Assembly (NCBI GenBank): GCA_964016885.1
Contig: CAXHJY010000105.1
Span: forward strand, 620,001-684,000
Origin: Eledone cirrhosa
Lineage: Eukaryota
Length of the DNA: 64,000 nt
Direction of reading: 5' to 3'
The translations under genes and the position numbers were made by a program. Of the stretch, positions 12,001-55,969 are shown in pieces. The notes under the pieces are model-generated. The model did no database searches and was not told where the DNA came from. It saw nothing but the letters and a program-made list of their open reading frames with translations. Position 1 is the stretch's first letter; each line of letters begins with the position of its first letter.

Positions 12001-13124
12001 AGATACAGAACACTTGACCTAACATAAGGATACAGAACTCTTGACCTAACATAAGGATACAGAACTCTTGACCTAACATAGGGATACAGAACACTTGACC
12101 TAACATAAGGATACAGAACACTTGACCTAACATAAGGATACAGAACTCTTGACCTAACATAGGGATACAGAACACTTGACCTAACATAAAGATACAGAAC
12201 ACTTGACCTAACATAAGGATACAGAACTCTTGACCTAACATAGGGATACAGAACACTTGACCTAACATAAGGATACAGAACACTTCACCTAACATAAGGA
12301 TACAGAAGACATGACCTGACATAAGGATACAGAACACTTGACCTAACATAAGGATACAGAACACTTGACCTAACATAAGGATACAGAACATTTGACCTAA
12401 CATAAGGATACAGAACCCTTGACCTAACATAAGGATACAGAACCCTTGACCTAACATAAGGATACAGAACACTTGACCTAACATAAGGATACAGAACACC
12501 TGACCTCACATAAGGATACAGAACACTTGACCTAACATAAGGATACAGAACATTTGACCTAACATAAGGATACAGAACCCTTGACCTAACATAAGGATAC
12601 AGAACCCTTGACCTAACATAAGGATACAGAACACTTGACCTAACATAAGGATACAGAACACCTGACCTCACATAAGGATACAGAACACTTGACCTAACAT
12701 AAGCATACAGAACCCTTGACCTATCATAAGGATATAGAACCCTTGACCTAACATAAGGATACAGAAAACTTGACCTAACATAAGGATACAGAACACTTGA
12801 CTTAACATAAGGATACAGAACACTTGACCTAACATAAGGATACAGAACACTTGACCTAACATAAGGATACAGAACACTTGACCTAACATAAGGATACAGA
12901 ACACTTGACCTGACATAAGGATACAGAACCCTTGACCTAACAAGGATACAGAACACTTGACCTGACATAAGGATACAGAACCCTTGACCTAACATAAGGA
13001 TACAGAACACTTGACCTAACATAAGGATACAGAACCCTTGACCTAACATAAGGATACAGAAACCTTGACCTAACATAAGGATACAGAACACTTGACCTAA
13101 CATAAGGATACAGAACACTTGACC
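1..13124. repeat. Satellite 1: 27-bp tandem array (ACTTGACCTAACATAAGGATACAGAAC), >=485 copies, runs off the left edge; intronic to the minus-strand gene
   Basis: Clear 27-nt periodicity with 25/28-nt indel variants; array ends at ...GACCT|TCCAATG near 13124. Confidence 0.98.
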
Positions 13125-13184
13125 TTCCAATGTGTATAACATATGTAATAGCAGTGGGTGTGAGATGGGGGTGACTCTGGAGAA

Positions 13185-13415: not shown

Positions 13416-13681
13416 TACGATTAGAAAAATGGGGAGACAACTCTAGAGAAATATTAGGAAAAAAGGAGGGGGGAGGAGTACCGATTGTTGTGTTTAGCAA
13501 GTGTAGAAACATTGAGGCTGAGGGAGGGGCTTAACTCTGGAGAACTATGACTAAAAAAGGGGGCTACTGATTGCTGTGTTGGGTTTACGTACCAATGTGT
13601 TTAGTGTGTACAAACTGGGGGAGAACTATTAGAAAAGGAGAGGTTGTGGGGGAGAAACTACTGTATGTTAAGTCTACGTAC

Positions 13682-13812
13682 CAATGTTAGACTTTTCCGG
13701 CACAATAGGAATATCTGTCTGGACTGCAACTGTTTCAACTGATTTCCGTTCCTGACTGTACAACATCTGTTCTTGTTCAATAAGGATGGAGAATAACCTT
13801 GACCGGACAGCG
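13682..13812 (-). CDS. Host gene coding exon (131 nt): (F)AVRSRLFSILIEQEQMLYSQERKSVETVAVQTDIPIVPEKSNI
   Basis: Acceptor ttctattttctatgaaAG, donor G|GTACGT. Phase-2 start completes TT+C (Phe) from exon 15061-15233; no stops. Confidence 0.85.
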
Positions 13813-15060: not shown

Positions 15061-15233
15061 AATTCCACACTGGTGCTAAGGATCATAGATTTCATCTCTC
15101 TCCTGAGGAAACCAGTAAATTCTGAAGACAGATTCTGTAAACAAGTGAGACCTGCTACCGTCCAGAAGTCAAGGAATGAATGTTGGTAGAGACTACACAG
15201 GTTAGTGTCAGTGTGGGGCGGGGAGTTGTTGGG
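15061..15233 (-). CDS. Host gene coding exon (173 nt): PNNSPPHTDTNLCSLYQHSFLDFWTVAGLTCLQNLSSEFTGFLRREMKSMILSTSVE(F)
   Basis: Acceptor cactaacctatgttatctctttatttcAG, donor TT|GTAAGT. Phase 0 in and phase 2 out match both neighbours. Confidence 0.88.
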
Positions 15234-18200
15234 CTGAAATAAAGAGATAACATAGGTTAGTGTGGGGCAGGGAGTTGTTGGGCTGAAATAAAGAGATAAC
15301 ATAGGTTAGTGTGGGGCGGGGAGTTGTTGGGGAGAGAGAGATGACATAGGTTAGTGTGGGGCGGGGAGTTGTTGGACTGAAATAAAGAGATAACATAGGT
15401 TAGGGTGGGAGGAGTTGTTGGGGAGAGAGATAACATAGGTTAGTGTGGGGGGAGTTGTTGGGGAGAGAGAGATTACATAGGTTAGTGTGGGGGGAGTTGT
15501 TGGGGAGAGAGAGATTACATAAGTTAGTGTGGGAGGAGTTGTTGGGGAGAGAGATGACATAGGTTAGTGTGGGGGGAGTTGTTGGGGAGAGAGAGATTAC
15601 ATAGGTTAGTGTGGGGGGAGTTGTTGGGGAGAGAGAGATTACATAAGTTAGTGTGGGAGGAGTTGTTGGGGAGAGAGAGATTACATAGGTTAGTGTGGGG
15701 GGAGTTGTTGGGGAGAGAGATAACATAGATTAGTGTGGGGGGAGTTGTTGGGGGGAGAGATAACATAGGTTAGTGTGGGGGGAGTTGTTGGGGAGAGAGA
15801 GATAACATAGGTTAGTGTAAGGGGAGTTGTGAAGAGAGAGATAACATAGGTCAGTGTGGGGGGAGTTGTTGGGGAGAGAGAGATAACATAGGTCAGTGTG
15901 GGAGGAGTTGTTGGGGGGAGAGAGATAACATAGGTTAGTGTGGGGGGAGTTGTTGGGGAGAGAGAGATAACATAGGTTAGTGTGGGGGGAGTTGTTGGGG
16001 AGAGATAACATAGGTTAGTGTGGGGGGAGTTGTTGGGAAGAGAGAGATGACATAGGTTAGTGTGGGGGGAGTTGTTGGGGAGAGAGAGATAACATAGGTT
16101 AGTGTGGGGGGAGTTGTTGGGGAGAGAGATAACATAGTTTAGTGTGGGGGGAGTTGTTGGGGAGAGAGAGATAACAGAGTTCAGTGTGGGGGGAGTTGTT
16201 GAGGAGAGAGAGATAACATAGGTTAGTGTGGGGGGAGAGAGAGATAACATAGTTTAGTGTGGGGGGAGTTGTTGGGGAGAGAGAGATAACAGAGGTCAGT
16301 GTGGGGGGAGTTGTTGGGGAGAGAGATAACATAGGTTAGTGTGGGGGGAGTTGTTGGGGAGAGAGAGATAACATAGCTTAGTGTGGGGGGAGTTGTTGGG
16401 GGAGAGAGAGATGACATAGGTTAGTGTGGGGGGAGTTGTTGGGGAGAGAGAGATGACATAGGTTAGTGTGGGGGGAGTGGTTGGGAGGAGAGAGATAACA
16501 TAGGTTAGTGTGAGGGGAGTTGTTGGGAAGAGAGAGATAACATAGGTTAGTGTAAGGAGAGTTGTTGGGGAGAGAGAGATAACATAGGTTAGTGTGGGGG
16601 GAGTTGTTGGGGAGAGAGAGATAACAGAGGTCAGTATGAGGGGAGTTGTTGGGGAGAGAGAGATAACATAGCTTAGTGTGGGGGGAGTTGTTAGGGAGAG
16701 AGAGATGACATAGGTTAGTGTGGGGGGAGTTGTTGGGGAGAGAGAGATAAAATAGTTTATTAGTGTGGGGGGAGTGAGATGACATAGGTTAGTGTTGGGG
16801 GAGTTGTTGGGGAGAGAGAGATAACATAGGTTAGTGTGGGGGGAGTTGTTGGGGAGAGAGAGATAACATAGGTTAGTGTGGGGGGACTTGTTGGGGAGAG
16901 AGAGATAACATAGGTTAGTGTGGGGGGAGTTGTTGGGGAGAGAGAGATAACATAGGTTAGTGTAGGGGTAGTTGTTGGGGAGTGAGAGATAACATAGGTT
17001 AGTGTGGGGGTAGTTGTTGGGGAGAGAGTAAACATAGGTCAGTGTGGGGGGAGTTGTTGGGGAGAGAGAGATAACATAGGTTAGTGTGGGGGGAGTTGGG
17101 AAGAGAGAGATAACATAGGTTAGTGTGGGGGGAGTTGTTGGGGAGAGAGAGATAACATAGGTCAGTGTGGGGGGAGTTGTTGGGGAGAGAGATAACATAG
17201 GTTAGTGTGGGGGGAGTTGTTGGGGAGAGAGAGATAACATAGGTTAGTGTGGGGGGAGTTGTTGGGGAGAGAGAGAACATAGGTCAGTGTAGGGGGAGTT
17301 GTTGGGGGGAGAGAGATAACATAGGTTAGTGTGGGGGGAGTTGTTGGGGAGATAGAGATAACATAGGTTAGTGTGGGGGGAGTTGTTGGGGAGAGAGAGA
17401 TAACATAGGTTAGTGTGGGGGGAGTTGTTGGGGAGAGAGAGATAACATAGGTTAGTGTGGGGGGAGTTGTTGGGGAGAGAGAGATAACATAGGTTAGTGT
17501 GGGGGGAGGTGGGAAGAGAGAGATAACATAGGTTAGTATGGGGGGAGTTGTTGGGGAGAGAGAGATAACATAGGTTAGTGTGGGGGGAGTTGTTGGGAAG
17601 AGAGAGATGACATAGGTTAGTGTGGGGGGAATTGTTGGGGAGAGAGAGATAACATAGGTTAGTGTGGGGGGAGTTTTTGGGGAGAGAGAGATAACATAGG
17701 TTAGTGTGGGGGGAGTTGTTGGGGAGAGAGAGATAACACAGGTTAGTGTTGGGGGAGTTGTTGGGGAGAGAGAGATAACATAGGTTAGTGTTGGGGGAGT
17801 TGTTGGGGAGAGAGAGATGATATAGGTTAGTGTGGGGGGAGTTGTTGGGGAGAGAGAGATAACATAGGTTAGTGTGGGGGGAGTTGTTGGGGTGGGAGAG
17901 ATAACATAGGTTAGTGTGGGGGGAGTTGTTGGGGAGAGAGAGATAACATAGGTTAGTGTGGGGGAGTTGTTGGGGAGAGAGAAATAACATAGGTTAGTGT
18001 GGGGGGAGTTGTTGGGGAGAGAGAGATAACATAGGTTAGTGTTGGGGGAGTTGTTGGGGAGAGAGAGATGATATAGGTTAGTGTGGGGGGAGTTGTTGGG
18101 GAGAGAGAGATAACATAGGTTAGTGTGGGGGGAGTTGTTGGGGTGGGAGAGATAACATAGGTTAGTGTGGGGGGAGTTGTTGGGGAGAGAGAGATAACAT

Positions 18201-21200
18201 AGGTTAGTGTGGGGGAGTTGTTGGGGAGAGAGAAATAACATAGGTTAGTGTGGGGGGAGTTGTTGGGGAGAGAGAGATAACATAGGTCAGTGCGGGGGGA
18301 GTTGTTGGGGAGAGAGAGATTACATAAGTTAGTGTGGGAGGAGTTGTTGGGGAGAGAGATGACATAGGTTAGTGTGGGGGGAGTTGTTGGGGAGAGAGAG
18401 ATTACATAAGTTAATGTGGGAGGAGTTGTTGGGGAGAGAGAGATTACATAGGTTAGTGTGGGGGGAGTTGTTGGGGAGAGAGATAACATAGGTTGGTGTG
18501 GGGGGAGTTGTTGGGGAGAGAGATAACATAGGTTAGTGTGGGGGGAGTTGTTGGGGAGAGAGAGAAAACATAGGTTAGTGTAAGGGGAATTGTGAAGAGA
18601 GAGATAACATAGGTCAGTGTGGGGGGAGTTGTTGGGGAGAGAGAGATAACATAGGTCAGTGTGGGAGGAGTTGTTGGGGGGAGAGAGATAACATAGGTTA
18701 GTGTGGGGGGAGTTGTTGGGGAGAGAGAGATAACATAGGTTAGTGTGGGGGGAGTTGTTGGGGAGAGATAACATAGGTTAGTGTGGGGGGAGTTGTTGGG
18801 AAGAGAGAGATGACATAGGTTAGTGTGGGGGGAGTTGTTGGGGCGAGAGAGATAACATAGGTTAGTGTGGGGGGAGTTGTTGGGAAGAGAGAGATAACAT
18901 AGTTTAGTGTGGGGGGAGTTGTTGGGGAGAGAGAGATAACAAAGTTCAGTGTAGGGGGAGTTGTTGAGAGAGAGATAACATAGGTTAGTGTGGGGGGAGT
19001 TGTTGGGGAGAGAGAGATAACATAGCTTAGTGTGGGGGGAGTTGTTGGGAAGAGAGAGATGAGATAGGTTAGTGTGGGGGGAGTTGTTGGGGAGAGAGAG
19101 ATAACATAGGTTAGTGTTGGGGGAGTTGTTGGGGAGAGAGAGATAACATAGGTTAGTGTGGTGGGAGTTGTTGGGGAGAGAGAGATAACATAGGTTAGTG
19201 TTGGGGGAGTTGTTGGGGAGAGAGAGATAACATAGGTTAGTGTGGGGAGAGTTGTTGTGAAGAGAGAGATAACATAGGTCAGTGTGGGGGAGTTGTTGGG
19301 GAGAGAGAGATAACATAGGTTAGTGTGGGGGGAGTTGTTGGGGAGAGAGAGATAACATAGTTTAGTGTGGGGGGAGTTGTTGGGGAGAGAGAGATAACAG
19401 ACGTCAGTGTGGGGGGAGTTGTTGGGGAGAGAGATAACATAGGTTAGTGTGGGGGGAGTTGTTGGGGAGAGAGAGATAACATAGGTTAGAGTGGGGGGAG
19501 TTGTTGGGGGAGAGAGAGATGACATAGGTTAGTGTGGGGGGAGTTGTTGGGAAGAGAGAGATGACATAGGTTAGTGTGGGGGGAGTTGTTGGGAGGAGAG
19601 AGATAACATAGGTTAGTGTGAGGGGAGTTGTTGGGAAGAGAGAGATAACATAGGTTAGTGTAAGGAGAGTTGTTGGGGAGAGAGAGATAACATAGGTTAG
19701 TGTGGGGGGAGTTGTTGGGGAGAGAGAGATAACATAGGTTAGTGTGGGGGGAGTTGTTGGGGAGAGAGAGATAACATAGGTTAGTGTAGGGGTAGTTGTT
19801 GGGAAGAGAGAGATAACATAGGTTAGTGTGGGGGTAGTTGTTGGGGAGAGAGATAACATAGGTCAGTGTCGGGGGAGTTGTTGGGGAGAGAGAGATAACA
19901 TAGGTTAGTGTGGGGGGAGTTGGGAAGAGAGAGATAACATAGGTTAGTGTGGGGAGAGTTGTTGGGGAGAGAGAGAACATAGGTCAGTGTAGGGGGAGTT
20001 GTTGGGGGGAGAGAGATAACATAGGTTAGTGTGGGGGGAGTTGTTGGGGAGATAGAGATAACATAGGTTAGTGTGGGGGGAGTTGTTGGGGAGAGAGAGA
20101 TAACATAGGTTAGTGTGGGGGGAGTTGTTGGGGAGAGAGAGATAACATAGGTTAGTGTGGGGGGAGTTGTTGGGGAGAGAGAGATGACATAGGTTAAAGT
20201 GGGGGGAGGTGGGAAGAGAGAGATAACATAGGTTAGTATGGGGGGAGTTGTTGGGGAGAGAGAGATAACATAGGTTAGTGTGGGGGGAGTTGTTGGGAAG
20301 AGAGAGATGACATAGGTTAGTGTGGGGGGAATTGTTGGGGAGAGAGAGATAACATAGGTTAGTGTGGGGGGAGTTTTGGGGGAGAGAGAGATAACATAGG
20401 TTAGTGTGGGGGGAGTTGTTGGGGAGAGAGAGATAACACAGGTTAGTGTTGGGGGAGTTGTTGGGGAGAGAGAGATAATATAGGTTAGTGTGGGGGGAGT
20501 TGTTGGGGAGAGAGAGATAACATAGGTTAGTGTTGGGGGAGTTGTTGGGGAGAGAGAGATGATATAGGTTAGTGTGGGGGGAGTTGTTGGGGAGAGAGAG
20601 ATAACATAGGTTAATGTGGGGGGAGTTGTTGGGGAGAGAGAGATAACATAGGTTAGTGTGGGGGGAGTTGTTGGGGAGAGAGAGATAACATAGGTTAGTG
20701 TGGGGGAGTTGTTGGGGAGAGAGAAATAACATAGGTTAGTGTGGGGGGAGTTGTTGGGGAGAGAGAGATAACATAGGTCAGTGTGGGGGGAGTTGTTGGG
20801 GAGAGAGAGATAACATAGGTCAGTGTGGGGGGAGTTGTTGGGGAGAGAGAGATAACATAGGTTAGTGTGGGGGGAGTTGTTGGGGAGAGAGAGATAACAT
20901 AGGTTAGTGTGAAGGGAGTTGTGGGGAAGAGAGATAACAAAGGTTAGTGTGGGGGGAGTTGGGAAGAGAGAGATAACATAGGTTAGTGTGGGGGGAATTG
21001 TTGGGGAGAGAGAGATAACATAGGTTAGTGTGGGGGGAGTTGTTGGGGAGAGAGAGATAACATAGGTTAGTGTGGAGGGAGTTGTTGGGAAGAGAGAGAT
21101 AACATAGATTAGTGTGGGGGGAGTTGTTGGGGAGAGAGAGATAACATAGGTTAGTGTGGGGGGAGTTGTTATGGAGAGAGATAACATAGGTTAGTGTGGG

Positions 21201-24200
21201 GGAAGTTGTTGGGGAGACAGATAACATAGGTTAGTGTGGGGGGAGTTGTTGGGGAGAGAGAGATAACATAGGTTAGTGTGGGGGTAGTTGTTGGGGAGAG
21301 AGATAACATAGGTCAGTGTGGGGGGAGTTGTTGGGGAGAGAGATTACGTAGGTTAGTGTGGGGGAGTTGTTGGGGAGAGAGGGATTACATAGGTTAGTGT
21401 GGGGGGAGTTGTTGGGGAGAGAGATAACATAGGTTAGCATGGGGGAGTTGTTGGGGAGAGAGAGATAACATAGGTTAGTGTGGGGGGAGTTGTTGTGAAG
21501 AGAGAGATAACATAGGTCAGTGTGGGGGGAGTTGTTGGGTAGAGAGAGATAACATAGGTTAGTGTGGGGGGAGTTGTTGGGGAGAGAGAGATAACACAGG
21601 TTAGTTTGGGGGAGTTGTTGGGGAGAGATAACATAGGTTAGTGTTGGGGGAGTTGTTGGGGAGAGAGAGATAACATAGGTCAGTGTGGGGGGAGTTGTTG
21701 GGGAGAGAGAGATAACATAGGTTCGTGTGGGGGGAGTTGTTGGAGAGAGAGAGATAACATAGGTTAGTGTGGGGAGAGTTGTTGGGGAGAGAGAGATAAC
21801 ATAGGTTAGTGTGGGGGGAAGTGGGAAGAGAGAGATAACATAGCTTAGTATGGGGGAGTTGTTGGGGAGAGAGAGATAACATAGGTTAGTGTGGGGGGAG
21901 TTGTTGGGAAGAGATAGATGACATAGGTTAGTGTGGGGGGAATTGTTGGGGAAAGAGAGATATCATAGGTTAGTGTGGGCGAAGTTGTTGGGGAGACAGA
22001 GATAACATAGTTTCGTATGGGGGGAGTTGTTGGGGAGAGAGAGATAACATAGGTTAGTGTGGGGAGAGTTGTTGAGAAGAGAGAGATAACATAGGTTAGT
22101 GTGGGGGGAGTTGTTGGGGAGAGAGAGATAACATAGGTTAGTGTGGGCGGAGTTGTTGGGGAGAGAGAGAACATAGGTCAGTGTAGGGGGAGTTGTTGGG
22201 GGGAGAGAGATAACATAGGTTAGTGTGGGGGGAGTTGTTGGGGAGATAGAGATAACATAGGTTAGTGTGGGGGGAGTTGTTGGGGAGAGAGAGATAACAT
22301 AGGTTAGTGTGGGGGGAGTTGTTGGGGAGAGAGAGATAACATAGGTTAGTGTGGGGGGAGTTGTTGGGGAGAGAGATAACATAGGTTAGTGTGGGGGGAG
22401 GTGGGAAGAGAGAGATAACATAGGTTAGTATGGGGGGAGTTGTTGGGGAGAGAGAGATAACATAGGTTAGTGTGGGGGGAGTTGTTGGGAAGAGAGAGAT
22501 GACATAGGTTAGTGTGGGGGGAATTGTTGGGGAGAGAGAGATAACATAGGTTAGTGTTGGGGGAGTTGTTGGGGAGAGAGAGATAATATAGGTTAGTGTG
22601 GGGGGTGTTGTTGGGGAGAGAGAGATAACATAGGTTAGTGTGGGGCAGGGAGTTGTTGGGCTGAAATAAAGAGATAACATAGGTTAGTGTGGGGCGGGGA
22701 GTTGTTGGGGAGAGAGATGACATAGGTTAGTGTGGGGCGGGGAGTTGTTGGACTGAAATAAAGAGATAACATAGGTTAGGGTGGGGGGAGTTGTTGGGGA
22801 GAGAGATAACATAGGTTAGTGTGGGGGGAGTTGTTGGGGAGAGAGAGATTACATAGGTTAGTGTGGGGGGAGTTGTTGGGGAGAGAGAGATTACATAAGT
22901 TAGTGTGGGAGGAGTTGTTGGGGAGAGAGATGACATAGGTTAGTGTGGGGGGAGTTGTTGGGGAGAGAGAGATTACATAGGTTAGTGTGGGGGGAGTTGT
23001 TGGGGAGAGAGATAACATAGATTAGTGTGGGGGGAGTTGTTGGGGAGAGAGATAACATAGGTTAGTGTGGGGGGAGTTGTTGGGTAGAGAGAGATAACAT
23101 AGGTTAGTGTAAGGGGAGTTGTGAAGAGAGAGATAACATAGGTCAGTGTGGGGGGAGTTGTTGGGGAGAGAGAGATAACATAGGTCAGTGTGGGAGGAGT
23201 TGTTGGGGGGAGAGAGATAACATAGGTTAGTGTGGGGGGAGTTGTTGGGGAGAGAGAGATAACATAGGTTAGTGTGGGGGGAGTTGTTGGGGAGAGATAA
23301 CATAGGTTAGTGTGGGGGGAGTTGTTGGGAAGAGAGAGATGACATAGGTTAGTGTGGGGGGAGTTGTTGGGGAGAGAGAGATAACATAGGTTAGTGTGGG
23401 GGGAGTTGTTGGGGAGAGAGAGATAACATAGTTTAGTGTGGGGGGAGTTGTTGGGGAGAGAGAGATAACAGAGTTCAGTGTGGGGGGAGTTGTTGAGGAG
23501 AGAGAGATAACATAGGTTAGTGTGGGGGGAGTTGTTGGGGAGAGAGAGATAACATAGGTTAGTGTGGGGGGAGTTGTTGGGAAGAGAGAGATGACATAGG
23601 TTAGTGTGGGGGGAGTTGTTGGGGAGAGAGAGATAACATAGGTTAGTGTTGGGGGAGAGAGAGATAACATAGGTTTGTGTGGGGGGAGTTGTTGGGGAGA
23701 GAGAGATAACATAGGTTAGTGTTGGGGGAGTTGTTGGGAAGAGAGAGATAACATAGGTTAGTGTGGGGAGAGTTGTTGTGAAGAGAGAGATAACATAGGT
23801 CAGTGTGGGGGAGTTGTTGGGGAGAGAGAGATAACATAGGTTAGTGTGGAGGGAGTTGTTGGGGAGAGAGAGATAACATAGTTTAGTGTGGGGGGAGTTG
23901 TTGGGGAGAGAGAGATAACAGAGGTCAGTGTGGGGGGAGTTGTTGGGGAGAGAGATAACATAGGTTAGTGTGGGGGGAGTTGTTGGGGAGAGAGAGATGA
24001 CATAGGTTAGTGTGGGGGGAGTTGTTGGGGAGAGAGAGATGACATAGGTTAGTGTGGGGGGAGTGGTTGGGAGGAGAGAGATAACATAGGTTAGTGTGAG
24101 GGGAGTTGTTGGGAAGAGAGAGATAACATAGGTTAGTGTAAGGAGAGTTGTTGGGGAGAGAGAGATAACATAGGTTAGTGTGGGGGGAGTTGTTGGGGAG

Positions 24201-27200
24201 AGAGAGATAACAGAGGTCAGTATGAGGGGAGTTGTTGGGGAGAGAGAGATAACATAGCTTAGTGTGGGGGGAGTTGTTAGGGAGAGAGAGATGACATAGG
24301 TTAGTGTGGGGGGAGTTGTTGGGGAGAGAGAGATAAAATAGTTTATTAGTGTGGGGGGAGTGAGATGACATAGGTTAGTGTTGGGGGAGTTGTTGGGGAG
24401 AGAGAGATAACATAGGTTAGTGTGGGGGGAGTTGTTGGGAAGAGAGAGATAACATAGGTTAGTGTGGGGGGACTTGTTGGGGAGAGAGAGATAACATAGG
24501 TTAGTGTGGGGGGAGTTGTTGGGGAGAGAGAGATAACATAGGTTAGTGTAGGGGTAGTTGTTGGGGAGTGAGAGATAACATAGGTTAGTGTGGGGGTAGT
24601 TGTTGGGGAGAGAGAGATAACATAGGTTATTGTGTGGGGAGTTGGGAAGAGAGTGATAACATAGGTTAGTGTGGGGGGAGTTGTTGGGGAGAGAGAGATA
24701 ACATAGGTCAGTGTGGGGGGAGTTGTTGGGGAGAGAGATAACATAGGTTAGTGTGGGGGGAGTTGTTGGGGAGAGAGAGATAACATAGGTTAGTGTGGGG
24801 GGAGTTGTTGGGGAGAGAGAGAACATAGGTCAGTGTAGGGGGAGTTGTTGGGGGGAGAGAGATAACATAGGTTAGTGTGGGGGGAGTTGTTAGGGAGATA
24901 GAGATAACATAGGTTAGTGTGGGGGGAGTTGTTGGGGAGAGAGAGATAACATAGGTTAGTGTGGGGGGAGTTGTTGGGGAGAGAGAGATGACATAGGTTA
25001 GTGTGGGGGGAGTTGTTGGGGAGAGAGAGATAACATAGGTTAGTGTGGGGGGAGGTGGGAAGAGAGAGATAACATAGGTTAGTATGGGGGGAGTTGTTGG
25101 GGAGAGAGAGATAACATAGGTTAGTGTGGGGGGAGTTGTTGGGAAGAGAGAGATGACATAGGTTAGTGTGGGGGGAATTGTTGGGGAGAGAGAGATAACA
25201 TAGGTTAGTGTGGGGGGAGTTTTTGGGGAGAGAGAGATAACATAGGTTAGTGTGGGGGGAGTTGTTGGGGAGAGAGAGATAACACAGGTTAGTGTTGGGG
25301 GAGTTGTTGGGGAGAGAGAGATAATATAGGTTAGTGTGGGGGGAGTTGTTGGGGAGAGAGAGATAACATAGGTTAGTGTTCGGGGAGTTGTTGGGGAGAG
25401 AGAGATGATATAGGTTAGTGTGGGGGGAGTTGTTGGGGAGAGAGAGATAACATAGGTTAGTGTGGGGGGAGTTGTTGGGGAGGGAGAGATAACATATGTT
25501 AGTGTGTGGGGAGTTGTTGGGGAGAGAGAGATAACATAGGTTAGTGTGGGGGAGTTGTTGGGGAGAGAGAAATAACATAGGTTAGTGTGGGGGGAGTTGT
25601 TGGGGAGAGAGAGATAACATAGGTTAGTGTGGGGGGAGTTGTTATGGAGAGAGATAACATAGGTTAGTGTGGGGGAAGTTGTTGGGGAGACAGATAACAT
25701 AGGTTAGTGTGGGGGGAGTTGTTGGGGAGAGAGAGATAACATAGGTTAGTCTGGGGGTAGTTGTTGGGGAGAGAGATAACATAGGTCAGTGTGGGGGGAG
25801 TTGTTGGGGAGAGAGAGATTACATAGGTTAGTGTGGGGGGAGTTGTTGGGGAGAGAGATAACATAGGTTAGCATGGGGGAGTTGTTGGGGAGAGAGAGAT
25901 AACATAGGTTAGTGTGGGGGGAGTTGTTGTGAAGAGAGAGATAACATAGGTCAGTGTGGGGGGAGTTGTTGGGTAGAGAGAGATAACATAGGTTAGTGTG
26001 GGGGGAGTTGTTGGGGAGAGAGAGATAACATAGGTTAGTGTGGGGGGAAGTGGGAAGAGAGAGATAACATAGCTTAGTATTGGGGGAGTTGTTGGGGAGA
26101 GAGAGATAACATAGGTTAGTGTGGGGGGAGTTGTTGGGAAGAGATAGATGACATAGGTTAGTGTGGGGGGAATTGTTGGGGAAAGAGAGATATCATAGGT
26201 TAGTGTGGGCGAAGTTGTTGGGGAGACAGAGATAACATAGTTTCGTATGGGGGGAGTTGTTGGGGAGAGAGAGATAACATAGGTTAGTGTGGGGAGAGTT
26301 GTTGAGAAGAGAGAGATAACATAGGTTAGTGTGGGGGGGAGTTGTTGGGGAGAGAGAGATAACATAGGTTAGTGTGGGCGGAGTTGTTGGGGAGAGAGAG
26401 AACATAGGTCAGTGTAGGGGGAGTTGTTGGGGGGAGAGAGATAACATAGGTTAGTGTGGGGGGAGTTGTTGGGGAGATAGAGATAACATAGGTTAGTGTG
26501 GGGGGAGTTGTTGGGGAGAGAGAGATAACGTAGGTTAGTGTGGGGGGAGTTGTTGGGGAGAGAGAGATAACATAGGTTAGTGTGGGGGGAGTTGTTGGGG
26601 AGAGAGAGATAACATAGGTTAGTGTGGGGGGAGTTGTTGGGGAGAGAGAGATAACATAGGTTAGTGTGGGGGGAGTTGTTGGGAAGAGAGAGATGACATA
26701 GGTTAGTGTGGGGGGAATTGTTGGGGAGAGAGAGATAACATAGGTTAGTGTTGGGGGAGTTGTTGGGGAGAGAGAGATAATATAGGTTAGTGTGGGGGGA
26801 GTTGTTGGGGAGAGAGATATAACATAGGTTAGTGTGGGGCAGGGAGTTGTTGGGCTGAAATAAAGAGATAACATAGGTTAGTGTGGGGCGGGGAGTTGTT
26901 GGGGAGAGAGAGATGACATAGGTTAGTGTGGGGCGGGGAGTTGTTGGACTGAAATAAAGAGATAACATAGGTTAGGGTGGGGGGAGTTGTTGGGGAGAGA
27001 GATAACATAGGTTAGTGTGGGGGGAGAGAGAGATTACATAGGTTAGTGTGGGGGGAGTTGTTGGGGAGAGAGAGATTACATAAGTTAGTGTGGGAGGAGT
27101 TGTTGGGGAGAGAGATGACATAGGTTAGTGTGGGGGGAGTTGTTGGGGAGAGAGAGATTACATAGGTTAGTGTGGGGGGAGTTGTTGGGGAGAGAGAGAT

Positions 27201-30200
27201 TACATAAGTTAGTGTGGGAGGAGTTGTTGGGGAGAGAGAGATTACATAGGTTAGTGTGGGGGGAGTTGTTGGGGAGAGAGATAACATAGGTTAGTGTGGG
27301 GGGAGTTGTTGGGGAGAGAGATAACATAGGTTAGTGTGGGGGGAGTTGTTGGGTAGAGAGAGATAACATAGGTTAGTGTAAGGGGAGTTGTGAAGAGAGA
27401 GATAACATAGGTCAGTCTGGGGGGAGTTGTTGGGGAGAGAGAGATAACATAGGTCAGTGTGGGAGGAGTTGTTGGGGGGAGAGAGATAACATAGGTTAGT
27501 GTGGGGGGAGTTGTTGGGGAGAGAGAGATAACATAGGTTAGTGTGGGGGGAGTTGTTGGGGAGAGATAACATAGGTTAGTGTGGGGGGAGTTGTTGGGAA
27601 GAGAGAGATGACATAGGTTAGTGTGGGGGGAGTTGTTGGGGAGAGAGAGATAACATAGGTTAGTGTGGGGGGAGTTGTTGGGGAGAGAGAGATAACATAG
27701 TTTAGTGTGGGGGGAGTTGTTGGGGAGAGAGAGATAACAGAGTTCAGTGTGGGGGGAGTTGTTGAGGAGAGAGAGATAACATAGGTTAGTGTGGGGGGAG
27801 TTGTTGGGGAGAGAGAGATAACATAGCTTAGTGTGGGGGGAGTTGTTGGGAAGAGAGAGATGACATAGGTTAGTGTGGGGGGAGTTGTTGGGGAGAGAGA
27901 GATAACATAGGTTAGTGTTGGGGGAGAGAGAGATAACATAGGTTTGTGTGGGGGGAGTTGTTGGGGAGAGAGAGATAACATAGGTTAGTGTTGGGGGAGT
28001 TGTTGGGGAGAGAGAGATAACATAGGTTAGTGTGGGGAGAGTTGTTGTGAAGAGAGAGATAACATAGGTCAGTGTGGGGGAGTTGTTGGGGAGAGAGAGA
28101 TAACATAGGTTAGTGTGGGGGGAGTTGTTGGGGAGAGAGAGATAACAGAGGTCAGTGTGGGGGGAGTTGTTGGGGAGAGAGATAACATAGGTTAGTGTGG
28201 GGGGAGTTGTTGGGGAGAGAGAGATAACATAGCTTAGTGTGGGGGGAGTTGTTGGGGGAGAGAGAGATGACATAGGTTAGTGTGGGGGGAGTTGTTGGGG
28301 AGAGAGAGATGACATAGGTTAGTGTGGGGGGAGTGGTTGGGAGGAGAGAGATAACATAGGTTAGTGTGAGGGGAGTTGTTGGGAAGAGAGAGATAACATA
28401 GGTTAGTGTAAGGAGAGTTGTTGGGGAGAGAGAGATAACATAGGTTAGTGTCGGGGGAGTTGTTGGGGAGAGAGAGATAACAGAGGTCAGTATGAGGGGA
28501 GTTGTTGGGGAGAGAGAGATAACATAGCTTAGTGTGGGGGGAGTTGTTAGGGAGAGAGAGATGACATAGGTTAGTGTGGGGGGAGTTGTTGGGGAGAGAG
28601 AGATAAAATAGTTTATTAGTGTGGGGGAGTGAGATGACATAGGTTAGTGTTGGGGGAGTTGTTGGGGAGAGAGAGATAACATAGGTTAGTGTGGGGGGAG
28701 TTGTTGGGGAGAGAGAGATAACATAGGTTAGTGTGGGGGGACTTGTTGGGGAGAGAGAGATAACATAGGTTAGTGTGGGGGGAGTTGTTGGGGAGAGAGA
28801 GATAACATAGGTTAGTGTAGGGGTAGTTGTTGGGGAGTGAGAGATAACATAGGTTAGTGTGGGGGTAGTTGTTGGGGAGAGAGAGATAACATAGGTTATT
28901 GTGTGGGGAGTTGGGAAGAGAGTGATAACATAGGTTAGTGTGGGGGGAGTTGTTGGGGAGAGAGAGATAACATAGGTCAGTGTGGGGGGAGTTGTTGGGG
29001 AGAGAGATAACATAGGTTAGTGTGGGGGGAGTTGTTGGGGAGAGAGAGATAACATAGGTTAGTGTGGGGGGAGTTGTTGGGGAGAGAGAGAACATAGGTC
29101 AGTGTAGGGGGAGTTGTTGGGGGGAGAGAGATAACATAGGTTAGTGTGGGGGGAGTTGTTGGGGAGATAGAGATAACATAGGTTAGTGTGGGGGGAGTTG
29201 TTGGGGAGAGAGAGATAACATAGGTTAGTGTGGGGGGAGTTGTTGGGGAGAGAGAGATAACATAGGTTAGTGTGGGGGGAGTTGTTGGGGAGAGAGAGAT
29301 AACATAGGTTAGTGTGGGGGGAGGTGGGAAGAGAGAGATAACATAGGTTAGTATGGGGGGAGTTGTTGGGGAGAGAGAGATAACATAGGTTAGTGTGGGG
29401 GGAGTTGTTGGGAAGAGAGAGATGACATAGGTTAGTGTGGGGGGAATTGTTGGGGAGAGAGAGATAACATAGGTTAGTGTGGGGGGAGTTTTTGGGGAGA
29501 GAGAGATAACATAGGTTAGTGTGGGGGGAGTTGTTGGGGAGAGAGAGATAACACAGGTTAGTGTTGGGGGAGTTGTTGGGGAGAGAGAGATAATATAGGT
29601 TAGTGTGGGGGGAGTTGTTGGGGAGAGAGAGATAACATAGGTTAGTGTTGGGGGAGTTGTTGGGGAGAGAGAGATGATATAGGTTAGTGTGGGGGGAGTT
29701 GTTGGGGAGAGAGAGATAACATAGGTTAGTGTGGGGGGAGTTGTTGGGGAGGGAGAGATAACATATGTTAGTGTGGGGGGAGTTGTTGGGGAGAGAGAGA
29801 TAACATAGGTTAGTGTGGCGGAGTTGTTGGGGAGAGAGAAATAACATAGGTTAGTGTGGGGGGAGTTGTTGGGGAGAGAGAGATAACATAGGTCAGTGTG
29901 GGGGGAGTTGTTGGGGAGAGAGAGATTACATAAGTTAGTGTGGGAGGAGTTGTTGGGGAGAGAGATGACATAGGTTAGTGTGGGGGGAGTTGTTGGGGAG
30001 AGAGAGAGATTACATAGGTTAGTGTGGGGGGAGTTGTTGGGGAGAGAGAGATTACATAAGTTAGTGTGGGAGGAGTTGTTGGGGAGAGAGAGATTACATA
30101 GGTTAGTGTGGGGGGAGTTGTTGGGGAGAGAGATAACATAGGTTAGTGTGGGGGGAGTTGTTGGGGAGAGAGATAACATAGATTAGTGTGGGGGGAGTTG

Positions 30201-33200
30201 TTGGGGAGAGAGAGATAACATAGGTTAGTGTAAGGGGAGTTGTGAAGAGAGAGATAACATAGGTCAGTGTGGGGGGAGTTGTTGGGGAGAGAGAGATAAC
30301 ATAGGTCAGTGTGGGAGGAGTTGTTGGGGGGAGAGAGATAACATAGGTTAGTGTGGGGGGAGTTGTTGGGGAGAGAGAGATAACATAGGTTAGTGTGGGG
30401 GGAGTTGTTGGGGAGAGATAACATAGGTTAGTGTGGGGGGAGTTGTTGGGAAGAGAGAGATGACATAGGTTAGTGTGGGGGGAGTTGTTGGGGCGAGAGA
30501 GATAACATAGGTTAGTGTGGGGGGAGTTGTTGGGGAGAGAGAGATAACATAGTTTAGTGTGGGGGGAGTTGTTGGGGAGAGAGAGATAACAAAGTTCAGT
30601 GTGGGGGGAGTTGTTGAGGAGAGAGAGATAACATAGGTTAGTGTGGGGGGAGTTGTTGGGGAGAGAGAGATAACATAGCTTAGTGTGGGGGGAGTTGTTG
30701 GGAAGAGAGAGATGACATAGGTTAGTGTGGGGGGAGTTGTTGGGGAGAGAGAGATAACATAGGTTAGTGTTGGGGGAGTTGTTGGGGAGAGAGAGATAAC
30801 ATAGGTTAGTGTGGGGGGGAGTTGTTGGGGAGAGAGAGATAACATAGGTTAGTGTGGGGGAGTTGTTGGGGAGAGAGAGATAACATAGGTTAGTGTGGGG
30901 GGAGTTGTTGGGGAGAGAGAGATAACATAGTTTAGTGTGGGGGGAGTTGTTGGGGAGAGAGAGATAACAGACGTCAGTGTGGGGGGAGTTGTTGGGGAGA
31001 GAGATAACATAGGTTAGTGTGGGGGGAGTTGTTGGGGAGAGAGAGATAACATAGCTTAGAGTGGGGGGAGTTGTTGGGGGAGAGAGAGATGACATAGGTT
31101 AGTGTGAAGGGAGTTGTTGGGAAGAGAGAGATGACATAGGTTAGTGTGGGGGGAGTTGTTGGGAGGAGAGAGATAACATAGGTTAGTGTGAGGGGAGTTG
31201 TTGGGAAGAGAGAGATAACATAGGTTAGTGTAAGGAGAGTTGTTGGGGAGAGAGAGATAACATAGGTTAGTGTGGGGGGAGTTGTTGGGGAGAGAGAGAT
31301 AACAGAGGTCAGTATGAGGGGAGTTGTTGGGGAGAGAGAGATAACATAGCTTAGTGTGGGGGGAGTTGTTAGGGAGAGAGAGATGTCATAGGTTAGTGTG
31401 GGGGGAGTTGTTGGGGAGAGAGAGATAAAATAGTTTATTAGTGTGGGGGGAGTGAGATGACATAGGTTAGTGTTGGGGGAGTTGTTGGGGAGAGAGAGAT
31501 AACATAGGTTAGTGTAGGGGGAGTTGTTGGGGAGAGAGAGATAACATAGGTTAGTGTGGGGGGAGTTGTTGGGGAGAGAGAGATAACATAGGTTAGTGTA
31601 GGGGTAGTTGTTGGGGAGAGAGAGATAACATAGGTTAGTGTGGGGGTAGTTGTTGGGGAGAGAGATAACATAGGTCAGTGTCGGGGGAGTTGTTGGGGAG
31701 AGAGAGATAACATAGGTTAGTGTGGGGGAGTTGGGAAGAGAGAGATAACATAGGTTAGTGTGGGGGGAGTTGTTGGGGAGAGAGAGAACATAGGTCAGTG
31801 TAGGGGGAGTTGTTGGGGGGAGAGAGATAACATAGGTTAGTGTGGGGGGAGTTGTTGGGGAGATAGAGATAACATAGGTTAGTGTGGGGGGAGTTGTTGG
31901 GGAGAGAGAGATAACATAGGTTAGTGTGGGGGGAGTTGTTGGGGAGAGAGAGATAACATAGGTTAGGGTGGGGGGAGGTGGGAAGAGAGAGATAACATAG
32001 GTTAGTATGGGGGGAGTTGTTGGGGAGAGAGAGATAACATAGGTTAGTGTGGGGGGAGTTGTTGAGGAGAGAGAGATAACATAGGTTAGTGTGGGGGGAG
32101 TTGTTGGGGAGAGAGAGATAACATAGGTTAGTGTGGGGGGAGTTGTTGGGGAGAGAGAGATAACATAGGTTAGGGTGGGGGGAGGTGGGAAGAGAGAGAT
32201 AACATAGGTTAGTATGGGGGGAGTTGTTGGGGAGAGAGAGATAACATAGGTTAGTGTGGGGGGAGTTGTTGGGGAGAGAGAGATAACATAGGTTAGGGTG
32301 GGGGGAGGTGGGAAGAGAGAGATAACATAGGTTAGTATGGGGGGAGTTGTTGGGAAGAGAGAGATGACATAGGTTAGTGTGGGGGGAATTGTTGGGGAGA
32401 GAGAGATAACATAGGTTAGTGTGGGGGGAGTTTTTGGGGAGAGAGAGATAACATAGGTTAGTGTGGGGGGAGTTGTTGGGGAGAGAGAGATAACACAGGT
32501 TAGTGTTGGGGGAGTTGTTGGGGAGAGAGAGATAATATAGGTTAGTGTGGGGGGAGTTGTTGGGGAGAGAGAGATAACATAGGTTAGTGTTGGGGGAGTT
32601 ATTGGGGAGAGAGAGATGATATAGGTTAGTGTGGGGGGAGTTGTTGGGGAGAGAGAGATAACATAGGTTAGTGTGGGGGGAGTTGTTGGGCAGAGAGAGA
32701 TAACATAGGTTAGTGTGGGGGGAGTTGTTGGGGAGAGAGAGATAACATAGGTTAGTGTGGGGGAGTTGTTGGGGAGAGAGAAATAACATAGGTTAGTGTG
32801 GGCGGAGTTGTTGGGGAGAGAGAGATAACATAGGTCAGTGTGGGGGGAGTTGTTGGGGAGAGAGAGATAACATAGGTCAGTGTGGGGGGAGTTGTTGGGG
32901 AGAGAGAGATAACATAGGTTAGTGTGGGGGGAGTTGTTGGGGAGAGAGAGATAACATAGGTTAGTGTGAAGGGAGTTGTGGGGAAGAGAGATAACAAAGG
33001 TTAGTGTGGGGGGAGTTGGGAAGAGAGAGATAACATAGGTTAGTGTGGGGGGAGTTGTTGGGGAGAGAGAGATAACATAGGTTAGTGTGGAGGGAGTTGT
33101 TGGGAAGAGAGAGATAACATAGATTAGTGTGGGGGGAGTTGTTGGGGAGAGAGAGATAACATAGGTTAGTGTGGGGGGAGTTGTTATGGAGAGAGATAAC

Positions 33201-36200
33201 ATAGGTTAGTGTGGGGGAAGTTGTTGGGGAGACAGATAACATAGGTTAGTGTGGGGGGAGTTGTTGGGGAGAGAGAGATAACATAGGTTAGTGTGGGGGT
33301 AGTTGTTGGGGAGAGAGATAACATAGGTCAGTGTGGGGGGAGTTGTTGGGGAGAGAGATTACGTAGGTTAGTGTGGGGGAGTTGTTGGGGAGAGAGGGAT
33401 TACATAGGTTAGTGTGGGGGGAGTTGTTGGGGAGAGAGATAACATAGGTTAGCATGGGGGAGTTGTTGGGGAGAGAGAGATAACACAGGTTAGTGTTGGG
33501 GGAGTTGTTGGGGAGAGAGAGATAATATAGGTTAGTGTGGGGGGAGTTGTTGGGGAGAGAGAGATAACATAGGTTAGTGTTGGGGGAGTTGTTGGGGAGA
33601 GAGAGATGATATAGGTTAGTGTGGGGGGAGTTGTTGGGGAGAGAGAGATAACATAGGTTAGTGTGGGGGGAGTTGTTGGGGAGAGAGAGATAACATAGGT
33701 TAGTGTGGGGGGAGTTGTTGGGGAGAGAGAGATAACATAGGTTAGTGTGGGGGAGTTGTTGGGGAGAGAGAAATAACATAGGTTAGTGTGGGGGGAGTTG
33801 TTGGGGAGAGAGAGATAACATAGGTCAGTGTGGGGGGAGTTGTTGAGGAGAGAGAGATAACATAGGTCAGTGTGGGGGGAGTTGTTGGGGAGAGAGAGAT
33901 AACATAGGTTAGTGTGGGGGGAGTTGTTGGGGAGAGAGAGATAACATAGGTTAGTGTGAAGGGAGTTGTGGGGAAGAGAGATAACAAAGGTTAGTGTGGG
34001 GGGAGTTAGGAAGAGAGAGATAAAATAGGTTAGTATGGGGGGAATTGTTGGGGAGAGAGAGATAACATAGGTTAGTGTGGGGGGAGTTGTTGGGGAGAGA
34101 GAGATAACATAGGTTAGTGTGGAGGGAGTTGTTGGGAAGAGAGAGATAACATAGATTAGTGTGGGGGGAGTTGTTGGGGAGAGAGAGATAACATAGGTTA
34201 GTGTGGGGGGAGTTGTTATGGAGAGAGATAACATAGGTTAGTGTGGGGGAAGTTGTTGGGGAGACAGATAACATAGGTTAGTGTGGGGGGAGTTGTTGGG
34301 GAGAGAGAGATAACATAGGTTAGTGTGGGGGTAGTTGTTGGGGAGAGAGATAACATAGGTCAGTGTGGGGGGAGTTGTTGGGGAGAGAGATTACGTAGGT
34401 TAGTGTGGGGGAGTTGTTGGGGAGAGAGAGATAACATAGGTTCGTGTGGGGGGAGTTGTTGGAGAGAGAGAGATAACATAGGTTAGTGTGGGGGGAGTTG
34501 TTGGGGAGAGAGAGATAACATAGGTTAGTGTGGGGGGAAGTGGGAAGAGAGAGATAACATAGCTTAGTATGGGGGGAGTTGTTGGGGAGAGAGAGATAAC
34601 ATAGGTTAGTGTGGGGGGAGTTGTTGGGAAGAGAGAGATGACATAGGTTAGTGTGGGGGGAATTGTTGGGGAGAGAGAGATATCATAGGTTAGTGTGGGG
34701 GAAGTTGTTGGGGAGACAGAGATAACATAGTTTCGTATGGGGGGAGTTGTTGGGGAGAGAGAGATAACATAGGTTAGTGTGGGGAGAGTTGTTGAGAAGA
34801 GAGAGATAACATAGGTTAGTGTGGGGGGAGTTGTTGGGGAGAGAGAGATAACATAGGTTAGTGTGGGGGGAATTGTTGGGGAGAGAGAGATATCATAGGT
34901 TAGTGTTGGGGGAGTTGTTGGGGAGAGAAAGTTAACATAGGTTAGTGTTGGGGGAGTTGTTGGGTAGAGAGAGATAACATAGGTTAGAGTGGGGGGAGTT
35001 GTTGGGAAGAGAGAGATGACATAGGTTAGTGTGGGGGGAATTGTTGGGGAGAGAGAGATATCATAGGTTAGTGTGGGGGGAGTTGTTGGGGAGACATAGA
35101 TAACATAGTTTCGTGTGGGGGGAGTTGTTGGGGAGAGAGAGATAACATAGGTTAGTGTTGGGGGAGTTGTTGGGTAGAGAGAGATAACATAGGTTAGTGT
35201 GGGGAGAGTTGTTGGGGAGAGGGAGATAACATAGGTTAGTGTGGGGGGAGTTGTTGGGGAGAGAGAGTAACAGAGGTCAGTGTGGTGGGAGTTGTTGGGG
35301 AGAGAGAGATAACATAGCTTAGTGTGGGGGGAGTTGTTGGGAAGACAGAGATGACATAGGTTAGTGTGGGGGGAGTTGTTGGGGAGAGAGAGATAACATA
35401 GGTTAGTGTGGGGGGAGTTGTTGGGGAGAGAGAGATAACATAGATTAGTGTGGGGAGAGTTGTTGTGAAGAGAGAGATAACATAGGTCAGTGTGGGGGAG
35501 TTGTTGGGGAGAGAGAGATAACATAGGTTAGTGTGGGGGGAGTTGTTGGGGAGAGGGAGATAACATAGGTTAGTGTAGGGGGGAGTTGTTGGGAAGAGAG
35601 AGATAACATAGTTTAGTGTGGGGGGAGTTGTTGGGGAGAGAGAGATAACAGAGGTCAGTGTGGGGGGAGTTGTTGGGGAGAGAGATAACATAGGTTAGTG
35701 TGGGGGGAGTTGTTGTGAAGAGAGAGATAACATAGCTTAGTGTGGGGGGAGTTGTTGGGGGAGAGAGAGATGACATAGGTTAGTGTGGGGGGAGTTGTTG
35801 GGAGGAGAGAGATAACATAGGTTAGTGTGAGGGGAGTTGTTGGGAAGAGAGAGATAACATAGGTTAGTGTAAGGAGAGTTATTGGGGAGAGAGAGATAAC
35901 ATAGGTTAGTGTGGGGGGAGTTGTTGGGGAGAGAGAGATAACAGAGGTCAGTATGAGGGGAGTTGTTGGGGAGAGAGAGATAACATAGGTTAGTGTGGGG
36001 GGAGTTGTTGGGGGGAGAGAGATAACATAGTTTACTGTGGGGGGAGTTGTTGGGGAGAGAGAGATAGCATAGGTTAGTGTGGGGGGAGTTGTTGGGGGGA
36101 GAGAGAGAGATAACATAGGTTAGTGTGAGGGGAGTTTTTGGGAAGAGAGATAACATAGGTTAGTGTGGGGGGAGTTGTTGGGGAGAGAGAGATAACATAG

Positions 36201-37676
36201 TTTAGTGTGGGGGGAGTTGTTGGGAAGAGAGATAACATAGGTTAGTGTGGGGGGAGTTGTTGGGGAGAGAGAGATAACATAGGTCAGTGTGGGGGAGTTG
36301 TTGGGGAGAGAAAGATAACATAGGTTAGTGTGGGGGGAGTTGTTGGGGAGAGAGAGATAACATAGGTTAGTGTGGGGGGAGTTGTTGGGGAGAGAGAGAT
36401 AACATAGGTTAGTGTGAGGGGAGTTGTTGGGAAGAGAGAGATAACATAGGTTAGTGTGGGGAGAGTTGTTGGGGAGAGAGAGATAACATAGGTTAGTGTG
36501 GGGGGAATTGTTGGGGAGAGAGAGATGACATAGGTTAGTGTGGGGGGAGTTGTTGGGGAGAGAGAGATAACATAGTTTAGTGTGAGAGGAGTTGTTGGGG
36601 AGAGAGAGATAACATAGGTTAGTGTTGGGGGAGTTGTTGGGGAGAGAGAGATAACATAGGTTAGTGTTGGGGGAGGTGTTGGGGAGAGAGAGATAACATA
36701 CGTTTGTGTGGGGGGAGTTGGTGGGGAGAGAGAGATAACATAGGTTAGTGTGGGGGGGGAGGAGAGAGAGATAACATAGGTTAGTGTGGGGCAGTTGTTG
36801 GGGAGAGAGAGAACATAGGTTAGTGTGGGGGGAGTTGTTGGGGAGAGAGAGATAACATAGGTTAGTGTGGGGGGAGTTGTTGGGGAGAGAGATAACATAC
36901 GTTAGTGTGGGGGGAGTTGTTGGGGAGAGAGAGATAACATAGGTCAGTGTGGGGGGAGTTGTTAGGGAGAGATAATATAGGTTAGTGTGGGGGGAGTTGG
37001 GAAGAGAGAGAGATAACATAGGTTAGTGTGGGGCGATTCGTTGGGGAGAGAGAGATAACATAGGTCAGTGTGGGGGGAGTTGTTGGGAAGAGAGAGATAA
37101 CATAGGTTAGTGTGGGAGGAGTTGTTGGGGAGAGAGAGATAACATAGGTTAGTGTGGGGGGAGTTGTTGGGGAGAGAGAGATAACATAGGTCAGTGTGGG
37201 GGGAGTTGTTAGGGAGAGATAACATAGGTTAGTGTGGGGGGAGTTGTTGGGGAGAGAGATAACATAGGGTAGTGTGCGGGGAGTTGTTGGGGAGAGAGAG
37301 ATAACATAGGTTAGTGTGGGGGGAGTTGTTGGGGAGAGAGAGATAACATAGGTTAGTGTGGGGGGAGTTGTTGGGGAGAGAGAGATAACATAGGTTAGTG
37401 TGGGGGGAGTTGTTGGGAAGAGAGAGATAACATAGGTTGGTGTGGGGGGAGTTGGGAAGAGAGAGATAACATAGGTTAGTGTGGGGCGATTCGTTGGGGA
37501 GAGAGAGATAACATAGGTCAGTGTGGGGGGAGTTGTTGGGAAGAGAGAGATAACATAGGTTAGTGTTGGGGGAGTTGTTGGGGAGAGAGAGATAACATAG
37601 GTTAGTGTGGGCGGAGTTGTTGGGGAGAGAGAGATAACATAGGTTAGTGTGGGGGGAGTTGTTGGGAAGAGAGAGT
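15197..37676. repeat. Satellite 2: ~42-bp G-rich array (GGGGAGAGAGAGATAACATAGGTTAGTGTGGGGGGAGTTGTT), ~530 copies, derived from the host 3' splice junction
   Basis: 38-44 nt periodicity from variable (GA)n; the unit aligns to the intron end plus the first ~24 nt of exon 15233. Confidence 0.98.
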
Positions 37677-37759
37677 ATTTAATACTTAAACAAGTCAAAT
37701 TTCAAAAAATACTAAAACTCAAGATCTCACTTTGATATGTGTGTTTTTCCTATGTGTAT

Positions 37760-39791: not shown

Positions 39792-39849
39792 ATTCGAGAA
39801 GTTCAACCATTTGGTAAGGATTGTCCTAAATGCTGTGAAAGAACATCTT
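39792..39849 (-). CDS. Host gene coding exon (58 nt): (Q)RCSFTAFRTILTKWLNFSN
   Basis: Acceptor tatcttgtttttcAG, donor AAT|GTAAGT. Phase 2 in (CA+A = Gln), phase 0 out. Confidence 0.87.
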
Positions 39850-40994: not shown

Positions 40995-41071
40995 TGTGTG
41001 TTGCGGGAACAGATTTCAACAAATATATGGCCCAGAAGATCAGCAAATGTTTCTGCAGTTGAACCTTCCAG
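40995..41071 (-). CDS. Host gene coding exon (77 nt): LEGSTAETFADLLGHIFVEICSRNT(Q)
   Basis: Acceptor ttgttgttattgttcgcAG, donor CA|GTAAGG. Phase 0 in, phase 2 out. Confidence 0.85.
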
Positions 41072-41169
41072 CTGCGAACAATAACAACAATGTAAATAAA
41101 TGGATAAGTAAAGTAGAAAATACAAGTAGGGAGTGGGGTTTACTCCAAACACTGAGAAGTAACCCCAAG

Positions 41170-55886: not shown

Positions 55887-55904
55887 AAAAGCAGAATTAC
55901 CCAC

Positions 55905-55969
55905 CTTAATATGCTCTCCCTCTAAATCTGTAATTGTTGTGCGCAAACTACTCTCAAAATTATTGTAAT
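55905..55969 (-). CDS. Host gene coding exon (65 nt): (D)YNNFESSLRTTITDLEGEHIK
   Basis: Strong acceptor ttctcatccttttcctttccAG, donor AAG|GTGGGT. Phase 1 in, phase 0 out joins LEGSTAE. Confidence 0.8.

Follow-up and report, generated by a model that had tools for sequence, protein, structure and literature searches.

A 22-kb intronic satellite in an octopod Tudor/CCHC gene that appears to derive from the gene's own 3' splice site and exon start

Minisatellites at exon boundaries, termed mirages, have been described in amphioxus for Adh3, the globins BflGb6 and BflGb9, troponin C and PGBD5 (PMC3087553; PMC3902484). According to the part of this literature compared here, the tandem copies at BflGb6 span the 3' end of an intron together with the 5' part of the exon, many but not all copies keep their splice signals, normal splicing persists and copies at the edge escape homogenisation (PMC3087553). 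Human CBS 844ins68 likewise carries a duplicated intron/exon junction, where splicing uses the downstream site and discards the exon piece upstream of it as part of the intron; the text compared presents it as a polymorphism with one extra 68-bp copy and no amplified satellite (PMC2630376). Here we describe a far larger array in an octopod, Eledone cirrhosa, where 42-bp units fill most of intron 16 of a minus-strand gene for a Tudor/CCHC protein. The window analysed comprises 64,000 nucleotides, C132:620001-684000 of the 3.0-Gb assembly, and positions given without a prefix refer to it.

The intron 16 array is a mirage: its repeats are arranged head to tail and span an exon-intron boundary, they are specific to the locus, some copies keep the splice signal and a normal mRNA is made. 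As at BflGb6, the repeated piece joins an intron end to an exon start, but 541 copies over 22 kb compare with 3 and 6 copies there (PMC3087553). The octopod host, the retention of the acceptor in only 7 of the 541 units and the likely exon origin of the branch-point-like motif, which the amphioxus text compared does not discuss, set it further apart. Relative to published mirages, the scale, the near-total loss of AG and, likely, the exon origin of the branch motif are the differences; published globin alignments in supplements may already show exon-derived branch motifs, and the residual novelty is possibly the recruitment of a branch point from exon codons. We found no octopod mirage-like arrays of this scale in the open full-text literature, supplements lying outside the scope of that search. 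Drosophila kl-3 and kl-5 are similar in that gene length is mostly intronic satellite, but they are Y-linked and of megabase scale, and the text compared reports no junction-derived unit (PMC6508621). With seven nearly identical acceptors, hundreds of branch motifs and one site used in an assembled contig, the locus offers a natural test of 3' splice-site choice. It also illustrates how exon sequence can turn into intron and possibly supply one of the core signals for splicing, a modest step on the way to new intron sequence by duplication.

Tandem Repeats Finder (TRF) detects a single array at 15243..37675 with a period of 42 bp, 541 copies and 90% matches, which accounts for 22,433 of the 24,558 nt of intron 16 (39791-15234, minus strand) and bears out the original prediction of a 22.5-kb satellite of about 530 units. 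The unit quoted in that prediction is the most frequent one, with 104 identical copies. Cutting at the CACTAAC anchor yields 541 units, 391 of them 42 nt long, and a separate, stricter split distinguishes 167 unit types. The branch motif had been assigned to every unit, which holds for most of them: CTRAC is kept in 480 of 541 and missing from the remainder, and CACTGAC, the second version of the branch motif in the exon, is present in 53. Whole blocks of units have been duplicated at a higher order, with offsets near 103, 183 and 285 units, corresponding to some 4.3, 7.6 and 11.8 kb; the block copies differ from each other, and the duplications imply past unequal exchange. Intermediate units of 49 and 45 nt are located at the exon edge, where the 49-nt terminal unit is literally the intron end plus 20 exon bases. 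At the other edge (37667..37720, minus strand), the first unit is preceded by unique T-rich intron sequence without AG that ends ...ATACTCTCTCTT and is presumably a remnant of the ancestral intron end. The array contains no GTAAG or GTGAG donors and only 26 weak GTAAT. Its plus, or template, strand carries one G6 run and one G4 run per unit, with a GC skew of about 0.88, and might form quadruplexes.

The same satellite at unrelated loci would have spoken for an exon recruited from the satellite, and none was found. An exact search of the genome gives 270 matches for a 20-mer of the unit and 317 for a gapped unit pattern, all of them (270/270 and 317/317) inside the window. The satellite is local to a single locus as far as exact matches go; diverged copies may exist elsewhere.

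The acceptor at 15234 is used and the junction 39792->15233 is real. One 1,353-nt contig from run X1 spans precisely 15061-15233 and then runs on for 30 letters that are identical to 39792-39821, where exon 16 ends; X1 is interpreted as spliced RNA from this junction, as the kind of run is not recorded. It joins exon 16 (39792..39849, minus strand, 58 nt) to exon 17 (15061..15233, minus strand, 173 nt), which begins PNNSPPHTDTNLCSLYQHSF... and is 86% identical to Octopus bimaculoides LOC106867702; the junction sequence is as originally quoted. A genome search, made as a stricter first look, returned no intronless copy of the gene. The working 3' splice site (15234..15262, minus strand) consists of CACTAAC, a pyrimidine tract and TTTCAG, and the branch A that the motif predicts falls on 15257, position -24. 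Acceptors at 15134, in frame, and at 15192 were considered as well; the contig and the full-length conservation of the exon rule them out. X1 shows no contig on 15235-15286, although rare decoy use could escape. Past exon 17, X1 has two different continuations at 15061, with a loose-end agreement of 0.53; one partly fits exon 18, and the other was not placed anywhere in the 494 kb examined around the gene.

In the one spliced contig found, a number of near-perfect decoys are skipped. The sense strand of the array holds 28 AGs, namely the real acceptor, six decoy acceptors that agree with the real one at 28-29 of the 29 bases upstream, and 21 AGs from point mutations (18 AAG, 3 CAG). TTTATTTCAG is accordingly held by 7 of 541 units, and the acceptor AG is missing from the other 534, including the 5'-most. 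Two decoys adjoin the real site (15283..15405, minus strand), with AG at 15284 (29/29) and 15378 (28/29); their use, as acceptors 15282 and 15376, would add 49 or 143 nt and early stops. The other four lie 7.4-11.7 kb inside the array because the 4-12-kb duplications copied the terminal block, once at 22661..22781 (AG at 22662 and 22754) and once at 26855..26977 (AG at 26856 and 26950), both on the minus strand. Every decoy tested leads to a premature stop 23-162 codons past the junction, and its use would likely end in nonsense-mediated decay. A distant branch point with an AG exclusion zone is defined by a long AG-free stretch upstream of the used AG; here upstream AGs lie only 49 and 143 nt away. 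Recursive splice sites are internal acceptors with GT directly behind them (AG|GT), and the decoys precede CCC or TCC instead.

The satellite derives from the gene, since exons 16 and 17 are spliced at 39792->15233, the exon start is conserved and the array occupies a single locus. These observations support an origin from the gene's own junction, as had been proposed. The reading frame beginning at 15233 is 86% identical to the O. bimaculoides protein and 72% identical to that of Argonauta, and the exon start PNNS(P/S) is conserved in three relatives, in which the matching region reads PNNSPQSDCNLCNLY (O. sinensis), PNNSPQSDCHLCNLY (O. bimaculoides) and PNNSSQSDNLACKLY (Argonauta). The homology of the unit takes in the last 9 nt of the acceptor and extends over the first ~46 nt of exon 17. 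Read in the exon frame, its consensus encodes P-N-N-S-P-H-T-N-L-C-Y-L, compared with P-N-N-S-P-P-H-T-D-T-N-L-C-S-L in the exon.

Within this homology, an exon stretch at 15188..15207 (minus strand) with the codons T-N-L-C-S-L is identical at 17 of 20 positions to the branch-motif half of the unit, and judging from the match it is the likely source of the CACTAAC 'branch point'. Taking all pairs tried into account, a match of this quality has a P of about 7e-4. Between intron end and exon, the best 20-mer match reaches 11-15 at 16 acceptors without a duplication and 18-19 at two acceptors with one. The direction of transfer was likely from exon to intron, because the matched bases encode N-L-C-x-L, which is also present in O. 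sinensis. The original prediction had read the similarity of intron and exon as a microhomology that might have founded the duplication. At 17/20 over 20 nt it exceeds chance microhomology and is better read as a product of the duplication; with the branch motif likely derived from the exon, the earlier idea is reversed. The true microhomology is more likely TCTCT, which ends the exon stretch as the 3' edge of the duplicated piece and recurs on both array edges, in the 5' flank (...ATACTCTCTCTT) and in the exon (...GTAGTCTCTACC).

We propose that a piece of about 55 nt, made up of the last 9 intron bases and 46 exon bases and bearing TCTCT at both ends (intron ...ATACTCTCT, exon ...GTAGTCTCT), would have been duplicated head to tail. 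The upstream copy would then have lost its AG, the last copy becoming the acceptor and the copied exon piece becoming intron. In this state the codons GAC-ACT-AAC-CTG would have given CACTAAC 24 nt before the surviving AG, and a change of exon TGTAG to TGTTA would have cleared the AG between branch motif and acceptor. Slippage may subsequently have cut the unit from 55 to 49, 45 and 42 nt, with CT repeats replacing TTATTTCAG, and the G-poor 42-mer may have spread by unequal exchange accompanied by 4-12-kb block duplications. The last AG probably beats the identical decoy 49 nt upstream through being nearest to the 5' splice site at 15061 and having the intact exon behind it. Exon definition provides the ground for such a choice of the last acceptor, and we infer that the array is best read as tolerated repeat turnover in which the last acceptor is chosen in this way.

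Junction duplications were found at 2 of the 38 exon ends tested in the gene, both of them acceptors. The second is a three-copy acceptor duplication of 56-57 nt (C132:694583-694720, acceptor C132:694583) with a layout like that of the intron 16 array. Its first copy has changed AG to AA, its CTAAC comes from conserved S-P-N-Y codons, and its middle copy retains an AG whose use would add 19 residues in frame. Elsewhere in the genome, a 62-bp acceptor array at C20:7227944-7231266 ends at the exon start (VDWNEINAAWGQ) of Beclin-1, with about 52 copies that carry AG; 46 of 51 units contain CTRAC. Full acceptors can evidently amplify in this genome, because the Beclin-1 array, known from DNA alone, retains AG in 52 copies. 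We found no acceptor array for fasciclin in 32 stretches around 11 family matches.

Taken together, we consider it probable that the array arose by expansion, at a single locus, of the gene's own acceptor and exon start, that it is skipped correctly in one contig and is likely tolerated clutter, and that its branch motif likely comes from exon codons. That the working branch point itself was taken from these codons we favour only slightly. Several points weigh against this interpretation. The four-step history and the ancestral intron end are reconstructed without orthologous intron DNA, and the branch A at 15257 is predicted from its motif rather than mapped. The splicing evidence is one contig with a depth of 7.8, in which decoy products that are rare or degraded would escape notice. 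O. sinensis has C ahead of N-L-C where this exon has T, and the ACT of CACTAAC could have entered the exon from the array. The main unit is without the exon's extra proline codon and has the spacing of the relatives, a mismatch that could mean a more tangled history. CTRAC occurs in the first 46 nt of the exon at both duplicated acceptors and at 3 of 16 others (p=0.065, not significant), so that a link between duplicated acceptors and exon-borne CTRAC is suggestive at best; the Beclin-1 unit is apparently almost all intron, and its CTAAC is not exon-derived. Allele counts were drawn from the 389 of 541 units that are 42 nt long with up to 5 differences, and these are not independent events. 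Among these units the predicted branch A has 0 substitutions, but about a dozen other positions also have 0-1, and no extra conservation of the branch-motif sites was found (3, 3, 1, 0 and 3 distinct alleles, against a mean of 1.8).

AG is scarce in the array, at a density of 1.2/kb compared with 63.8/kb in the non-repeat part of intron 16. The predicted AG-depleted zone thus exists, though it is not AG-free: its longest AG-free gap measures 3,213 nt, and only 49 nt are clear directly before the real acceptor. Relative to base shuffles AG is rarer (27 vs 163), as anticipated, but CG (39 vs 308), GC (46 vs 308) and GG (0 vs 20) are likewise depleted, and 76% of shuffled units are without AG because the unit holds one G. 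The scarcity of AG follows from this single G per unit; in the array, 604 of 671 Gs are preceded by T.

It had been argued that only an AG-less variant was tolerated to amplify, many full acceptors being expected to divert splicing. The absence of the acceptor AG from 534 units, the main unit's lack of either of the two AGs that the reconstructed founder had, the loss of AG from the first copy of the duplication at C132:694583 and the early stop behind every decoy tested all fit such a selective filter, as does the finding that A to G changes occur at 0 of 3 sites after A but at 4 of the 7 remaining ones. The six decoys persist, however, two of them next to the real site and four duplicated into the interior. 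AG-making changes to G occur at 4 of 10 possible sites and other changes to G at 13 of 31 (p=1.0), so that ongoing selection against AG inside the array was not found by this weak test on 389 units. The 52 AG-bearing copies before the Beclin-1 exon, known as DNA only, and the sense-strand AGs in most other arrays of the host gene point in the same direction, and we regard the filter as unlikely. A role for the nascent intron as a local sink or scaffold that loads SF1/U2 and proteins binding to pyrimidine tracts, and thereby delays splicing or seeds a condensate, is less likely still, indeed very improbable. From the known specificities of SF1, U2 and PTB-type proteins, their binding to the array RNA is plausible: it offers 480 CTRAC motifs with a CU tract behind each of them, and is predicted to be unstructured (-3.1 kcal/mol over 301 nt). 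The tract, though, is C-rich, with 11 T per 42-nt unit, unlike the U-rich tract that U2AF65 prefers. The motif sites are no more conserved than the rest of the unit, there is one locus only, and a delay from 22 kb is small next to two other introns of the same gene, which measure 105 and 277 kb and have unrelated units; the 277-kb one, two introns downstream, dwarfs any timing effect. The proposed sponge or delay function is unsupported here. A precedent exists in chicken LL2R transcripts, repeat RNA dense in splice-like signals that recruits splicing factors; in the text compared, LL2R forms a separate, donor-rich non-coding transcription unit whose recruitment was imaged, whereas our case is built from sequence (bioRxiv 10.64898/2026.03.19.712899). 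The bolder combination, in which duplicated acceptors twice in this gene turned coding triplets (D-T-N-L) into the working branch point and a 22-kb RNA with 480 motifs also loads SF1/U2 and gates splicing, we consider highly improbable.

The direction of transfer could also have been the opposite one. The branch motif would then be the original signal of an intron end of the CACTAACCTATGT type, the unit would be the intron end plus 20 exon bases, as first proposed, and gene conversion from the array would have overwritten exon codons 8-15. The 49-nt terminal unit does consist of the intron end plus 20 exon bases, and 5 of the first 15 exon codons differ from O. sinensis, compared with about 1 of the next 42. 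The same loop varies between Argonauta and Octopus too, however, and TCTCT is common to the array edges, as a longer founder predicts. Moreover, the unit matches the N-L-C-x-L of O. sinensis, which an intron would not encode by chance, and we judge this history, including its account of the unit, improbable. Barely credible, finally, is an array length inflated by assembly error. The long near-identical blocks would invite such an error, and the DNA runs may come from the assembly's own sample. Against it stand the 167 distinct unit types, the differences between block copies, and the contigs of runs X2 and X3, whose summed depth, which is not a copy number, reaches thousands on the main unit and tens on the AG-bearing unit. 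We retain expansion of the gene's own junction as the preferred account.

The gene model was built from the window plus 430 kb of neighbouring DNA. It comprises 19 exons on the minus strand (C132:832001-355261), in which every intron is GT-AG, and encodes a product of 1138 aa with no internal stop, 960 residues of which are identical to the O. sinensis protein; in related proteins a Tudor domain is accompanied by a weak CCHC knuckle. A wider homologue search returned octopod proteins only, and the comparison thus excludes squid and other molluscs. Besides exons 16 and 17, the window contains exon 14 (55905..55969), exon 15 (40995..41071) and exon 18 (13682..13812), all on the minus strand, the last being followed by the 277-kb last intron.

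The gene spans 477 kb for 3.4 kb of coding sequence, and arrays of at least 500 bp occupy 436 of the 494 kb examined. The last intron holds a 27-bp array of about 10,300 copies and 276.5 kb (window 1-13125; C132:356635-633125), which leaves about 650 unique bases and is AG-rich on the sense strand (71 AG/kb). Intron 9 (105 kb) holds an AG-containing array of 102.6 kb (C132:695013-797623; TRF period 165, made of 55-bp units). Among the gene's arrays, only the 42-bp array of intron 16 and one 38-bp array, both G-poor, have a sense-strand consensus without AG. At 41169-52988, a GC-rich array of about 200 copies of 57 bp repeats on its sense strand an acceptor-like pyrimidine run ending in CAG, and it stops about 100 nt before exon 15. 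Another 42-bp array (53873-55887) starts 18 nt past the exon 14 donor and has CTAAC in most units, with AGs present. At 61206-63407, a 61-bp array continues from the decayed 3' end of an element, which we take to be LINE-like. Similar units form arrays on another contig, at C20:7219386-7220304 and C20:7247049-7247418, so the element gives rise to satellites time and again. At 13580-13690, about 85 nt downstream of the donor region of exon 18, lies a short degenerate repeat of that region, seen by eye and under the blastn threshold.

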